32,000 nucleotides of DNA from NCBI RefSeq assembly GCF_000008645.1, contig NC_000916.1, forward strand, positions 1,170,001 through 1,202,000, given 5' to 3'. Of the stretch, positions 26,191-30,410 are shown piece by piece. The notes beneath the pieces are model-generated. The model was given only the letters and a program-made list of their open reading frames with translations. It was not told the origin of the DNA and searched no databases. Numbering within the stretch: the stretch's first letter is position 1; each line of letters begins with the position of its first letter. A program made the translations under genes and the position numbers. Source of the DNA: Methanothermobacter thermautotrophicus str. Delta H (GTDB lineage: Archaea; Methanobacteriota; Methanobacteria; Methanobacteriales; Methanothermobacteraceae).

Positions 26191-26628
26191 GTGATTGTTT
26201 TGATAATAGCAAGACCCCAGTGGTTCGGTAGAAGAAAGTACGGTGGCTGGGGAGTCTCAATAAAAACCTGGCAGGGCGCAGTATACCTTGCATGCGTATT
26301 CCTGCTGCTCGTCGGGATCCAGCTACTTCCCCTCAACACCACCACAAGGATGTATGTGACAGGTGCCTGGCTTGCATTCATGTTCCTGGACATGTTTGAT
26401 GTTATGTGGAAGGTGAAAAGGGATGAAAGGGAGTACCTCCATGAGGCCATAGCAGAAAGAAACGCCGCATGGGCCATGATGCCAGTGCTTGTAATTGGAG
26501 TGTTCATAGAACTCATCTCAAGTTCCCTGCAGGGAAAGCCCCACGTCGACCCCTTCATTTTACTTGCACTCCTTGCAGGTGTCCTTGCAAAATCCGTGAC
26601 AAACTACCGGCTGGAGAGGGAGAATTGA
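26191..26628 (+). CDS. Small integral membrane protein (DUF2178-like arrangement with a downstream XRE regulator)
   Basis: 145-aa ORF with about four hydrophobic helices. Its stop overlaps the TTG start of the HTH gene. The start is ambiguous (GTG 26191 or TTG 26200). Confidence 0.45.
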
Positions 26629-26834
26629 GGACACTAATAAGGGAACACAGGAAGGAACTCGGATTAACCCAGGAGGAACTCGCAGAGAGGGTTGGGGTAA
26701 CAAGGCAGACCATAATAGCCCTTGAGAAGGGACGTTACAGCCCCTCCCTCATCCTTGCCCACAGGATCGCAAGGGCCCTGGGAAGGGAGCATATCGAGGA
26801 TATCTTCATCCTTGATGAGGACGGTGCAAAATGA
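26625..26834 (+). CDS. XRE-family helix-turn-helix transcriptional regulator (69 aa)
   Basis: (M)[52 protein letters not shown] is a classic Cro/C1 HTH. TTG 26625 is preceded by GGAGAGGGAG and overlaps the upstream TGA. The 5' part of the tracked ORF from 26469 merely overlaps the membrane gene. Confidence 0.8.
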
Positions 26835-27607: not shown

Positions 27608-28567
27608 ATGGGAGTGTCCAAAGTGAGAGGTTTGTATATACTGTTGCTGGTCGTGCTCCTCCTCGCGGTGTCTGTTAACTCTTCAGCCGCTGCAGACAAC
27701 TGTACAGTCCTTGAAGCACAGGGGGATGATGTAGCGGGTGCACTGACCCATAATGTTACAGTGGATTCTGAGGGTGTGGTCCTCCAGACAAGGAACTACA
27801 CCTGCGGACCCGCAGCACTCGTCACCGTCCTCCAGAGACTCGGAGTGAACACCACAGAGGATGAACTCGCAGGCCTTGCCGGAACAACCGAGGACGGGAC
27901 CACCATGCAGGGCCTCCTGGAAGCCAGCAGGGCCAAGGGAGTGAACGCAACCGGCATGAAACTAAACATATCTGAACTCAAAGAAAACATGATCGCCTAT
28001 ACCATCAATGACGGCACCGGACACTACACCGTAATAAACGGAATCACCAATGACACGGTCAAACTCGCAGATCCAAGCCTCGGGAACATCGAAATGAATA
28101 TAGAAGAGTTCACTGAGATCTACAGCGGATATGCACTGGTTATAAATGATCCTAATAATCCAAGACAGGTCAACGGAACCACAGAACAAACAAATAATCA
28201 AACAGATCAAAGCAACGAGAACACCTCATCAGAAACCATAAATAACCTGACAGATACCACCTCTGATGTGCAGGCAGACAACAGAACTCTGACTGATGAG
28301 GAAATGCAGAACATTAAAGGTAAAAAATGGAGGCATAAACATTGGCATCCATGGAAGTGGCGGTGTTCTTATCATTGGCATGGTTGGTATCCTGTGCGTG
28401 TCCGTGCCTATTATGGATTCCATATAGTCTCTTATACAGCCCAAATGGTGCGCTGTGCTTGTACGCTGGATGCTGATGGCTTTGACTATTATTATGCTCG
28501 CTGTAAGACCTATGGTGATCGCTATATGGATTGGTATCGGCGCGTGGGATATAGGTATGCGGCATGA
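27608..28567 (+). CDS. Secreted C39-like cysteine peptidase fused to an N/T/Q-rich linker, a double-glycine-leader-like motif and a cationic Trp/Tyr/His-rich C-terminal module of about 80 aa (cassette 1)
   Basis: Sec-type signal (KVRGLYILLLVVLLLAVSVNSSAAA). The peptidase core has Q60-x5-C66 (LQTRNYTCGPAAL), H139 (GTGHYTVI) and D155 (KLADP). There are 13 N-x-S/T sequons in residues 1-239. The junction is LTDEEMQNIKGK (28289-28324). The tail is aa 240-319. An alternative start is GTG 27623 after GGGAGTG. Confidence 0.75.
   Translation: MGVSKVRGLYILLLVVLLLAVSVNSSAAADNCTVLEAQGDDVAGALTHNVTVDSEGVVLQTRNYTCGPAALVTVLQRLGVNTTEDELAGLAGTTEDGTTMQGLLEASRAKGVNATGMKLNISELKENMIAYTINDGTGHYTVINGITNDTVKLADPSLGNIEMNIEEFTEIYSGYALVINDPNNPRQVNGTTEQTNNQTDQSNENTSSETINNLTDTTSDVQADNRTLTDEEMQNIKGKKWRHKHWHPWKWRCSYHWHGWYPVRVRAYYGFHIVSYTAQMVRCACTLDADGFDYYYARCKTYGDRYMDWYRRVGYRYAA
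27999..28330 (+). repeat. Direct repeat copy A (3' half of the peptidase domain, the linker and the junction motif)
   Basis: By hand alignment to 29020..29348 I count 7 substitutions plus one 3-nt indel. Similarity ends abruptly just after GGTAAAAA. Confidence 0.9.
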
Positions 28568-28613: not shown

Positions 28614-28979
28614 ATGAAACGGGCATATGTCCTGCTAATTGGTTTGTCAATGCTTCTCATCTCCTTGATAGTACCATTCCCTCTAGCATTGTCCTTTGTT
28701 ATCCTGGCAGGATTATTTATCGCACATTTCAGTAAGATGGAAGAAAAAGAGGTTAACATGATTATAACAGCCACGGTATCTTTATTCATAGGATTACTGG
28801 GAGGATTACTTGGATCGATGATTCACCACAATATTTCATCAACCTGGACACTACTATCTGCTCATGGGGGACTCTTTTTAATAGCCTTAATTGGATACTT
28901 TTTCATGGTCCTAATACTGATGACATTAGGATCCATGATAGACAAGGTTATATCGAAAGCTAGATCAAAATCCCTTTGA
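28614..28979 (+). CDS. Small 4-TM membrane protein, candidate cognate immunity/protection protein of cassette 1
   Basis: 121-aa ORF with GGAGGT 9 nt upstream of the ATG. It has four hydrophobic helices and lies 46 nt downstream of the cassette-1 gene. I recognise no family. Confidence 0.65.
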   Translation: MKRAYVLLIGLSMLLISLIVPFPLALSFVILAGLFIAHFSKMEEKEVNMIITATVSLFIGLLGGLLGSMIHHNISSTWTLLSAHGGLFLIALIGYFFMVLILMTLGSMIDKVISKARSKSL

Positions 28980-29006: not shown

Positions 29007-29576
29007 ATGACACCAGAAGATACCATCAATGACGGCACCGGACACTACACCGTAATAAACGGAATCACCAATGACACGGTCAAACTCGCAGATCCAAGCC
29101 TCGGGAACATCGAAATGAATATAGAAGAGTTCGCTGAGATCTACAGCGGATATGCACTGGTTATAAATGATCCCAATAATCCACAGGTCAACGGAACCAC
29201 AGAACAAACAAATAATCAAACAGATCAAAGCAACGAGAACACCTCATCAGAAACCATAAATAACCTGACAGATACCGCCTCTGCTGTGAAGGCAGACAAC
29301 AGAACTCTGACTGATGAGGAAATGAAGAACATTAAAGGTAAAAACTGGAAGTACAGGTTAAATCAAAGGTTAAAGAGACAGGGAAGATGGAAAAGAAATG
29401 CATGGTACAACCGAAGCTTTAACTGGTGGAGAGTCTACTATGGAGGTGCCTGGGTCTGTGTAGCACCAGGTTACACAAATCATCCCGTGGGTAAGCTTTT
29501 TGGTTTCTTAGGGACAGTTTATCTAGGCACCGTGGGAACAGCGCATCTTAACGAAGGGTGGTGGACATATACCTGA
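29007..29576 (+). CDS. N-terminally truncated paralog (orphan module). It has no signal peptide and no catalytic Cys, keeps the His/Asp half of the peptidase domain, the linker and the junction motif, and carries a different cationic Trp-rich tail (cassette 2)
   Basis: 189-aa ORF. Homology to cassette 1 begins at TINDGTGHYTV. The junction is LTDEEMKNIKGK (29307-29342). The tail NWKYRLNQRLKRQGRWKRNAWYNRSFNWWR...GKLFGFLGTVYLGTVGTAHLNEGWWTYT follows. No SD precedes ATG 29007, so independent expression is uncertain. Confidence 0.55.
   Translation: MTPEDTINDGTGHYTVINGITNDTVKLADPSLGNIEMNIEEFAEIYSGYALVINDPNNPQVNGTTEQTNNQTDQSNENTSSETINNLTDTASAVKADNRTLTDEEMKNIKGKNWKYRLNQRLKRQGRWKRNAWYNRSFNWWRVYYGGAWVCVAPGYTNHPVGKLFGFLGTVYLGTVGTAHLNEGWWTYT
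29020..29348 (+). repeat. Direct repeat copy B
   Basis: It pairs with 27999..28330 at an offset of 1,021 bp, in the same orientation. Confidence 0.9.
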
Positions 29577-29645: not shown

Positions 29646-29957
29646 ATGTTACTCCTGTCTGTAGTCTTTTTTGGGATTTTTTTATACATAGAATTTAATT
29701 TTTTCCAATACTCAGAGTTAAGATTGTTAATGTTCATGTTAATTGTACTAACTCTTTATGGATATGCCAGACTTCAAAGTATCTATGATACCCCCGCAAG
29801 AAGATTAAAACTTTTGTTTTACACAATAGTTCTGGCTTTATTATTTTATATAGTAATACTAACCCGGCAGCCAGCGTTACTAAGAAATACCATGACTATA
29901 GTGACTATAGCGGCGTTAATTCTACTTGCATTTGATAAAAAAGAGAAGGTGAAATAG
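29646..29957 (+). CDS. Small 4-TM membrane protein, candidate cognate immunity protein of cassette 2
   Basis: 103-aa ORF with four hydrophobic helices and very AT-rich coding sequence. It shows no similarity to the cassette-1 membrane protein. There is no SD at ATG 29646. An upstream ATG (29632) followed by A6 is out of frame by one base. Confidence 0.5.
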   Translation: MLLLSVVFFGIFLYIEFNFFQYSELRLLMFMLIVLTLYGYARLQSIYDTPARRLKLLFYTIVLALLFYIVILTRQPALLRNTMTIVTIAALILLAFDKKEKVK

Positions 29958-29959
29958 CC

Positions 29960-30410
29960 AACATAATAGTTATCGACAGATGAGACTAACCCTAACTAAA
30001 TGAAAGTGTTGAAGTTGCAGATCCAAGGAAAAAGATAGACAATTAACACCCCCACAATTTCCAAGAGATTTACAGGCTACACTACTGTAATCAACCAAGA
30101 AACAGATGACATTCCGGCCGTGGACAGCGCAGCTCAAACCAGCACTTAAAACAACCCTAACCAAAGAGAAAATGCAGAACATCAAGGGTAAAGGTGAAGG
30201 TTATTCCTTCAAGATCGAAGTTTTTTCACTCTTTGTCTTGGGTGTTTCCTTGGTCTTACATTCATCTTATACGTGACATTAAGAAGAGAGTTCCGAAAGC
30301 AGGAGACATCGGTTTGTTCATAGCAAACATCTCATGCTCTTTTAAGTATTCCGCAAACACATCTAATTGTCTGCTCTGCATGCTAGATTGGATATAGATA
30401 TGCAGCATAA
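29960..30410 (+). pseudogene. Decayed third copy of the peptidase 3' half, linker, junction and tail (cassette 3 remnant)
   Basis: The translation fragments NIIVIDR*D*P*LNESVEVADPRKKIDN*HPHNFQEIY align to HYTVINGITNDTVKLADPSLGNIEMNIEEFTEIY. A frameshifted GYTTVINQ aligns to GYALVIND. The junction LTKEKMQNIKGK is at 30157-30192. The 3' end GGATATAGATATGCAGCATAA (30390-30410) matches the cassette-1 3' end GGATATAGGTATGCGGCATGA (28547-28567) at 18/21 positions. Confidence 0.6.

Follow-up and report, generated by a model that had tools for sequence, protein, structure and literature searches.

A C39 peptidase with an internal double-glycine leader-like motif and exchangeable tails in Methanothermobacter: a candidate self-releasing polymorphic peptide toxin

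Introduction

Why should an archaeal protein with a Sec-type signal peptide combine, in one polypeptide, a C39 cysteine peptidase, a short block resembling the double-glycine (GG) leaders of exported peptides and a C-terminal tail that differs from one copy to the next? The question is raised by a 319-residue protein encoded in a stretch of 32,000 nucleotides from Methanothermobacter thermautotrophicus str. Delta H (NC_000916.1, positions 1,170,001 to 1,202,000), referred to below as the window. The window comes from a Methanothermobacter genome, its nearest protein matches are from Methanothermobacter, and its flanks carry ksgA, a HemK-like methyltransferase gene and dapF. A protein search with the 319-residue sequence returned 81 homologs, nearly all from Methanobacteriales.

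An earlier note on this DNA, made from the sequence alone, had placed protease, leader-like motif and cargo in a single Sec-exported polypeptide, and the open reading frame (ORF) of 319 residues has a matching architecture with a predicted Sec-type signal peptide. We propose, with a probability of roughly 0.65, that the locus encodes a polymorphic, archaeocin-like peptide toxin together with its immunity, the C39 domain releasing the toxin by predicted self-cleavage. The proposal draws on sequence comparisons and structure models, and each part of it is set out below alongside the explanations that compete with it. The coordinates of the features are collected in Table 1.

Results

A leader-like motif marks the junction between constant and variable parts

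The motif LTDEEMQNIKGK is the last conserved block ahead of the point where the three cassettes of the locus diverge, about 45 residues past the end of the C39 domain. The block recurs as LTDEEMKNIKGK (29307-29342) in cassette 2 and as LTKEKMQNIKGK (30157-30192) in cassette 3. The repeats 27999-28331 and 29020-29349 end 7 nt past the Lys codon that closes the motif, and the tails beyond are unrelated, which puts the motif at the conserved/variable junction, exactly where the earlier note had located it. The residue numbers used there (C66, H139, G238 and K239) are correct by alignment. When compared with the leader consensus L-S-x-x-E-L-x-x-I-x-G-G, L228, E232, M233, I236 and G238 fit positions -12, -8, -7, -4 and -2, as had been claimed. 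The motif differs from a classical leader by its place, being internal (residues 228-239 of 319) and C-terminal to the peptidase rather than at the N-terminus of a separate peptide.

In an alignment of 44 homologs picked by overall similarity, with a mean column identity of 25%, only L228, M233, I236 and G238 reach at least 90% conservation in the C-terminal half of the protein. These are positions -12, -7, -4 and -2, and their retention is what the interpretation of the motif as a leader had predicted for homologs. We also compiled a logo of 136 non-redundant junctions, in which Leu occupies -12 in 134 sequences, Thr or Ser -11 in 119, Glu or Asp -9 in 118, Glu -8 in 106 and Met -7 in 130. 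On the other side of the motif, Ile is found at -4 in 125 sequences (132 with Val), Lys or Arg at -3 in 110 and Gly at -2 in 118, with Ala at -2 in 13; information content then drops sharply at +1. Across the 12 codons of the motif, pairwise nucleotide identity is 0.81 at first, 0.80 at second and 0.50 at third positions, with Leu encoded by five different codons and Gly by four; directly past the junction, identity is 0.28-0.30 at all codon positions. Third codon positions are thus free while the amino acids are kept, indicating selection on the peptide and not on the DNA.

The pattern [LIVM]x3[DEQNST][LMIAV]x2[ILVM]xGx, sought within 130 residues past the C39 domain, was present in 108 of 145 family members, compared with 6.2 +/- 2.3 in shuffled sequences, and most of the pattern-negative members, inspected by eye, carry degenerate versions of the motif. 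A loose GG-leader pattern is frequent by chance: the six-frame translation of the window (43,182 residues) contains 13 matches, about 1 per 4,000 residues, two of which are these junctions. Therefore, a single match is not significant, and the weight comes from the position at the junction, the family-wide occurrence and the conservation.

This background frequency, along with the strain breakpoints that fall at the block (see below), would suit an explanation in which the block marks only the limit of recombination or of a shared structural linker, its resemblance to a leader being coincidental. We consider this highly improbable. Amino acids are kept where third codon positions vary, which speaks for selection on the peptide; the pattern occurs far more often in the family than in shuffles; a profile built from the junctions detects real leaders; and the confidence with which the motif is modelled depends on the peptidase domain, as described further on.

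The junction profile comprised 14 columns, was built from archaeal junctions alone and was run on six-frame translations of 82 loci and the window. All matches of at least 8 bits were either family junctions and orphan cassettes or genuine N-terminal GG leaders. The genuine leaders were matched at 17.9-19 bits in the same register, with their second Gly aligned with the archaeal Lys. They belong to 55-residue peptides, in which MKELTKNEMKNIKGG is followed by AGLSAAV, encoded beside genes for 698-residue exporters that join C39 to an ATP-binding cassette (ABC) in metagenome-assembled genomes (MAGs) of Bacilli and Tenericutes. Two loci of this kind (L065:719-3504 and L070:4397-7181), which served as a positive control, contain the 698-residue exporter, an accessory protein and two small GG-leader peptides, beginning MKELTKNEMKNIKGG and MKDLSVKELKNIKGG. 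Among the NCBIfam and Pfam models that include GG leaders, the sole match was a sub-threshold one, in which residues 228-249 of the window protein aligned with the leader portion of NF038034 (lactococcin G-beta/enterocin 1071B; E 0.056-0.21); it is suggestive but carries no weight by itself. The junction-profile scan found no other GG-type substrate encoded in the window or in the archaeal loci. Overall, sequence and model evidence supports the earlier reading of the motif as an internal leader.

Additional copies of the motif were observed in some homologs. A second, shorter copy, [IL]TADPMAVKGKG, is present in 21 of them (P0019, P0030, P0034, P0035, P0037-P0039, P0045, P0048-P0050, P0052 and others) at about residues 25-40, some 10 residues past the signal peptide; it is absent from the window protein. 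It resembles LTxEEMQNIKGK minus one residue between Met and Val and could be a second C39 site, serving to trim the N-terminus or to release the protein from an uncleaved signal anchor. Tandem leader-like motifs occur in P0037, P0039, P0041, P0043, P0084, P0085 and L012:1865-2341, the first ending in IKGQ and the second, about 10-15 residues further on, in IRGR or IRGK.

Exchangeable tails, silent cassettes and candidate immunity genes

The earlier note had described the C-terminal part as a basic, Trp/Tyr-rich sequence of about 80 residues, a description that tail 1 bears out (80 residues, 10.2 kDa, isoelectric point (pI) 9.6, 27.5% aromatic, four Cys). Among 124 tails of the family, 116 are net positive, and aromatic residues make up a median of 18.5% of the tail, compared with 4% of the N-terminal parts. 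For the window protein, the N-terminal part in its mature form has a pI of 4.1. All 13 N-x-S/T sequons of the protein lie upstream of the junction (27608-28324) and none in the tail, a placement that hints at a glycosylated carrier and an unglycosylated peptide.

Unrelated tails are found behind near-identical N-terminal parts, and the same tails behind divergent ones. For instance, N-terminal parts with 94% and 51% identity to that of the window protein both carry the WRHKHWHPWKW tail, and the CWQFLAPVTIGTIIISVRNKYVPKKYW tail type is found behind at least six different lineages. Neither tail 1 nor tail 2 has a hydrophobic segment reaching the membrane-helix threshold. A word-indexed search for tail 1 relatives outside the C39 context returned only P0216, the intact copy of cassette 3, and the same search missed P0001, so its result is uninformative on the distribution of tail 1. 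The main gene of one M. thermautotrophicus genome (P0005, 244 residues) ends six residues past the junction, in KWRHKH, and its tail looks disrupted.

Behind tail 1 lies a gene for a 121-residue membrane protein that matched no Pfam or NCBIfam family. This protein pairs with relatives of tail 1 in L004, L005 and L006, always directly behind them and with 65-93% identity. The 103-residue protein encoded after cassette 2 is likewise found behind tail 2 or tail-2-like sequences in L001-L003, L006 and L009, orphan positions included. In other genera, too, the tail types retain downstream membrane proteins of their own. More generally, a small ORF with 2-4 predicted membrane helices stands within 350 nt behind most cassettes, compared with 10% of background ORFs.

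Natural exchanges of these modules are visible among close relatives. In three metagenomic Methanothermobacter contigs (L001-L003), the syntenic locus corresponds to the window minus the segment between the repeats, with 98.3-98.5% identity on both sides. There, and in P0004, the expressed gene has tail 2 behind the N-terminal part of the window protein. Cassette 3, decayed in the window, is intact in L081 and L082 (P0216), where it has a 78-residue tail and a 114-residue four-helix protein, and the homology to the window ends exactly at 30192. Strain breakpoints hence fall exactly at the junctions 28331/29349 and 30192. Extra cassettes are found elsewhere, up to three of them in L005, L009 and L024. 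By its sequence, the locus has the makings of a polymorphic toxin: exchanged C-terminal modules, a downstream candidate immunity gene that co-varies with them and orphan cassettes with a shared arm.

At least four arrangements of the locus were seen among close Methanothermobacter strains. L081 (1-2193) and L082 carry cassette 2, the intact cassette 3 with its own 114-residue membrane protein and the start of a cassette with the P0007 tail type. The cassette 2 ORF (P0023) is without a signal peptide or the catalytic Cys, yet it bears the NCBI label 'MULTISPECIES C39 domain-containing protein'.

The peptidase domain and its predicted contact with the motif

The window protein matches PF03412 with 116.6 bits, against a curated cut-off of 22 (E 9.1e-34), and the match spans positions 4-132 of the 133 in the profile at residues 57-183. 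Gln60 stands six residues before Cys66, and the spacing of Gln60, Cys66, His139 and Asp155 is as expected for C39. Among 100 non-redundant family domains with a motif after them, the catalytic Cys and Asp are each present in all 100, His is present in 98 and Gln in 74. The best Foldseek matches of the C39 model are PCAT1, ComA and LahT150 (E 3e-9 to 3e-8, root-mean-square deviation 1.6-2.4 A, 25-28% identity), and its neighbours also include the HlyB-type C39-like structures 3zua and 7sgr and the StbD/Cpe1 structures 8ssk and 8ssm. No ABC domain was found in the 319-residue protein; the NCBIfam ABC models match the peptidase part alone and far under their cut-offs. Weak NCBIfam matches to FapD and FilB (E 1.7e-7 and 6.7e-10) were also far under their cut-offs. 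At the N-terminus, AlphaFold predicts a helix at residues 6-25 in the signal-peptide region, and a hydrophobic N-terminal segment is common to full-length homologs. The distance from the end of the domain to the start of the motif varies across the family, with a median of 24 residues and a range of 3-76.

Two other identities were considered for the domain and rejected. It is not a pseudomurein endoisopeptidase of the PeiW/PeiR kind, given that it is a canonical PF03412 member (E 9e-34) and that PeiR is only its 33rd structural neighbour. Nor is the protein an equivalent of the C39-like glycosidase A0A126R2S0, whose architecture differs: that protein has an N-terminal pseudomurein-binding domain and a C-terminal C39-like domain in which Asn replaces the catalytic Asp (PMC13642728).

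In the AlphaFold model of the full protein, residues 221-240 have predicted local distance difference test (pLDDT) values of 82-92 and contain a helix (230-234) and strand residues (237-238); both flanks are below 50. When residues 195-319 were modelled alone with a matching alignment, the motif fell to pLDDT 53-69 and the strand was lost. The gain in confidence when the peptidase is present fits a motif docked on the peptidase in the models.

The residue at -1 and the fate of the motif

The earlier note had regarded Lys at -1 as the only deviation from the leader consensus. This holds for K239 in the window, which falls outside the Gly, Ala or Ser expected at -1 of double-glycine leaders, but Lys is not fixed across the family. 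Among the 136 junctions, Lys occurs in 62, Arg in 18, Gln in 15, Met in 13, Thr in 11 and Asn in 7, others being rarer; Lys and Arg together account for 80 (~59%). The position is the least conserved of the motif after -10 and -5. Gly, Ala or Ser is found at -1 in 8 of the 108 pattern-positive members, and four have a true GG (P0149, P0185, P0196 and P0202). Characterised C39 peptidases cut after Gly-Gly, Gly-Ala or Gly-Ser (StbD preprint, bioRxiv 10.64898/2026.05.07.723447). With other residues at -1, the family would need a permissive, open S1 site. The register with a cut after -1 is backed by the hydrophobic spacing, the GG-bearing members and the alignment to real leaders; judging from the sequences, the predicted cut position is possibly off by one residue.

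Several observations weigh against release by self-cleavage. The -1 residue is variable and mostly not small, in contrast to the Gly, Ala or Ser of characterised C39 substrates. The pLDDT support for docking is indirect, and the two alignments behind it differ in depth (44 vs 29 sequences). Gln60 is replaced by Ala in 22 of the 100 family domains. The peptidase columns that covary with -1 (63, 145, 152, 157 and 60) separate two clades, so the covariation is confounded by phylogeny. Finally, some tails, especially in bacteria of the candidate phyla radiation (CPR) and in Methanobrevibacter-like homologs, consist of a membrane helix followed by a basic cluster; going by their sequence, these could be anchors rather than toxins. 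As to position 60, Ala is mostly found in members whose -1 is other than Lys or Arg, such as the giant Methanobacterium proteins described below, and Cys, His and Asp are retained in these.

Such observations might be accommodated if the motif were a tethered pseudo-substrate, bound by the peptidase and left uncut, with an autoinhibitory or structural role. The full-length protein would then be the functional form, its tail a membrane or wall anchor or a targeting module, and the substrates of the C39 domain would be other molecules. Binding without cleavage is established for HlyB-type C39-like domains, and two structures of this type (3zua, 7sgr) are among the structural neighbours of the window domain. 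Lys and the other non-small residues at -1 make non-canonical C39 substrates, the helix and basic cluster of several tails look anchor-like, and docking in the AlphaFold models suits an inhibitor as well as a substrate. Yet the catalytic triad is nearly invariant, the junction-profile scan shows no further GG-type substrate in the window or the archaeal loci, and some members have a true GG at the same position. Moreover, an anchor needs neither a cognate, co-varying gene for a membrane protein nor a silent store of tails, and tails 1 and 2 contain no segment at the membrane-helix threshold. On balance, we find an uncut pseudo-substrate unlikely.

The abundance of Lys and Arg, the commonest residues at both -1 and -3, would also be expected if the junction were cut by a separate enzyme from host or target, perhaps one specific for Lys and Arg, with the C39 domain being itself the toxin or maturing other peptides. 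C39-fold domains can indeed be toxins, as in Tox-PL-C39 (PMC3482391) and StbD/Cpe1. However, the conserved positions are those of C39 recognition (-12, -7, -4 and Gly at -2) and not the basic residues. The C39 domain is constant and the tail polymorphic, the opposite of the pattern anticipated were C39 the toxin, and motif and domain occur together across Methanobacteriales and CPR bacteria. Cleavage by a different protease is accordingly an improbable account of the junction, and release of the tail by the C39 domain itself is the reading that we carry forward.

Distribution of the family

From a set of 1.84 billion representative proteins, a profile search retrieved 143 at E up to 1e-30. In Methanobacterium, the module of C39 domain, motif and tail ends proteins of 1,200-2,260 residues that contain pseudomurein-binding repeats (PF09373) and right-handed beta-helix regions (L021:2199-8981, L020, L022-L026, L033, L036 and L045), a layout resembling a CdiA-like stalk. 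The tails of these giant proteins are 150-180 residues long and rich in Trp and Tyr, and are followed by four-helix membrane ORFs, which are candidates for immunity, and by orphan cassettes.

The family extends to CPR bacteria, namely Candidatus Uhrbacteria and Microgenomates MAGs (L058, L059, L061 and L063). Their proteins have a signal peptide, a C39 domain, a linker, a motif and hydrophobic tails, and the motifs, such as ITDDELSGMTGK or LSELTDEEADAVNGK, end in Gly-Lys as in the window. Either a transfer between CPR bacteria and Methanobacteriales or an old family would explain the sharing.

Features of the locus

Table 1. Features of the C39 locus in the window (positions counted from the first nucleotide of the window)
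Feature	Position	Strand	Description	Basis
Main gene	27608..28567	+	319 aa; signal peptide, C39 peptidase, Asn/Thr/Gln-rich linker, leader-like motif, tail 1	ORF; Pfam PF03412
Predicted Sec-type signal peptide	27608..27694	+	~aa 1-29; basic n-region, Leu-rich core, SSAAA before Asp30	read from sequence
C39 peptidase domain	27776..28156	+	aa 57-183	Pfam PF03412; Foldseek; pLDDT ~95
Gln60	27785-27787	+	C39 residue	
Cys66	27803-27805	+	C39 residue	
His139	28022-28024	+	C39 residue	
Asp155	28070-28072	+	C39 residue	
Homology arm, copy 1	27999..28331	+	3' part of C39 domain, linker, motif	97-99% identical to 29020-29349
Linker	28157..28288	+	aa 184-227 (~45 residues), rich in Asn/Thr/Gln; 5 N-x-S/T sequons	pLDDT <50 at 189-221
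Leader-like motif	28289..28324	+	LTDEEMQNIKGK, aa 228-239 (-12 to -1); predicted scissile bond after Lys239	
Tail 1	28325..28564	+	predicted released peptide	
Candidate immunity gene 1	28614..28979	+	121 aa; 4 predicted membrane helices; GGAGG ribosome-binding site 9 nt upstream	
Orphan cassette 2	29007..29576	+	C-terminal C39 part without catalytic Cys, linker, LTDEEMKNIKGK, tail 2 (29343-29573)	
Candidate immunity gene 2	29646..29957	+	103 aa; 4 predicted membrane helices	
Decayed cassette 3	29999..30276	+	C39 3' remnant, LTKEKMQNIKGK, 27-aa tail; no immunity ORF behind	

Just upstream of the methyltransferase gene and the candidate toxin locus (26191-26834), an ORF for a 145-residue hydrophobic protein overlaps the start of a small XRE-type helix-turn-helix gene. 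The pair is kept in L001-L003.

Discussion

A proposed route from precursor to released peptide

The proposed scheme would run as follows. The precursor would be exported through the Sec pathway by its N-terminal signal peptide, and the C39 cysteine peptidase domain would fold outside the membrane. The motif LTDEEMQNI-KGK, carried about 45 residues downstream on a flexible linker, would then bind in the substrate groove, either of its own molecule or of one nearby, where the Cys66/His139/Asp155 triad, with Gln60 as the oxyanion-hole residue, is predicted to cut after Gly238-Lys239. The cut would free a cationic, Trp/Tyr-rich peptide of about 80 residues from an acidic carrier (pI 4.1) that bears all the N-x-S/T sequons. 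We presume that this peptide is toxic and that the small four-helix membrane protein encoded directly downstream protects the producer. The reducing habitats of methanogens and of groundwater CPR bacteria may let an extracellular cysteine protease work.

Diversity would come from the silent cassettes, in which the 3' end of the peptidase gene, the linker and the motif precede a distinct tail and a candidate immunity gene specific to it. Recombination over the common arm of 330 nt, whose end coincides with the junction, would bring them into the expressed gene.

The family as a whole might amount to an unrecognised, Sec-dependent class of self-releasing polymorphic peptide toxins in pseudomurein-walled methanogens and CPR bacteria, a joint reading on which our own opinion is evenly balanced. 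It supposes that C39, once on the cytoplasmic side of an ABC exporter, came to lie outside the cell, now with a leader-like site of its own, and that at P1, where Gly was required, Lys, Arg or nearly any other residue is tolerated. The acidic, sequon-bearing N-terminal part would keep the cationic peptide inactive until cleavage, a strictly reducing habitat would permit the extracellular cysteine protease, and the large relatives, with their beta-helix stalk and pseudomurein-binding repeats, would serve to deliver this module at the surface of the cell.

If this is true, double-glycine processing is separable from ABC export and can run in cis after Sec translocation, and C39 peptidases accept Lys or Arg at P1. 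C39 would then join the releasing peptidases of polymorphic toxins, and a shared weapon architecture would connect Methanobacteriales with CPR bacteria. Genome mining for bacteriocins that requires GG, GA or GS and a nearby exporter would miss the class. Natural antimicrobial peptides of methanogens have, to our knowledge, hardly been described. The dozens of tail types and their matched immunity genes would constitute a catalogue of candidate anti-methanogen peptides, with a bearing on methane control in the rumen and in digesters and on strain competition in Methanothermobacter bioreactors.

Comparison with known systems

Parts of the family have surfaced in previous work. arCOG10864 was named 'predicted C39 peptidase' (PMC4158269), a hypervariable C39 gene was reported in Methanobacterium single-cell genomes (PMC8115248) and an archaeal C39 locus with separate GG-leader proteins has been described (PMC6393860). 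The family is absent from a 2026 survey of bacteriocins in archaea. We found no earlier account of the architecture in the literature covered, which leaves out Makarova et al. 2019 (mBio 10:e00715-19), the likeliest source. As far as sequences and models tell, the locus combines double-glycine processing with a polymorphic toxin system, each of a known kind, and the combination points to an undescribed archaeal way to make and diversify antimicrobial peptides.

The PCAT/AMS exporters (ComA, PCAT1 and LahT) and their GG leaders share with the window protein the peptidase fold and triad and the leader consensus, with hydrophobic residues at -12, -7 and -4, acidic ones at -8 and -9 and Gly at -2, and one profile finds both. 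These systems, which export class II bacteriocins, microcins and competence peptides, likewise have small cationic cargo and an adjacent immunity gene for a membrane protein. Unlike them, the window protein has no ABC transporter, carries a Sec-type signal peptide and is predicted to be processed outside the cell; its leader is internal, C-terminal to the peptidase and part of the same polypeptide, and the residue at -1 is Lys or variable instead of Gly, Ala or Ser. FapD of the Fap amyloid systems and FilB are similar in being Sec-exported, stand-alone C39 peptidases that work outside the cytoplasm without ABC fusion, but their substrates are separate proteins, and they have no fused polymorphic tail and no cassettes.

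An archaeal parallel is the halocin C8 precursor ProC8 of haloarchaea, which is exported and cut once to give a C-terminal antimicrobial peptide of ~76 residues (bioRxiv 10.64898/2026.07.27.741052). In ProC8, unlike the window protein, the immunity protein forms the N-terminal part and no protease has been assigned to the cut, and the two share no sequence relationship. The nearest experimental precedent for self-processing in cis by C39 is StbD-CT/Cpe1, in which the C39 domain of StbD-CT cleaves the flexible linker next to it, in cis and behind a Gly-Gly, only when conditions are reducing (bioRxiv 10.64898/2026.05.07.723447). There, however, the peptidase is the toxin, the site is N-terminal and the cut occurs in the cytoplasm of the target, whereas here the peptidase is the predicted carrier and the site is C-terminal.

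In its genetic layout, the locus resembles polymorphic toxin systems with releasing peptidases in cis and orphan cassettes, among them CdiA-CT, Rhs and MafB, which likewise have a constant N-terminal part, a variable C-terminal toxin and a cognate immunity gene downstream (PMC3482391). They share with it silent downstream cassettes, a homology arm that ends at a junction motif (compare VENN and PxxxxDPxGL) and natural swaps, and the large relatives of the window family have a beta-helix stalk and wall-binding repeats as these toxins do. In the survey of Zhang et al. 2012, C39 appears as a toxin domain alone (Tox-PL-C39) and not as a releasing peptidase (PMC3482391). The present cargo differs from that of the surveyed toxins in consisting of short peptides rather than enzyme domains, and its hosts are pseudomurein archaea and CPR bacteria.

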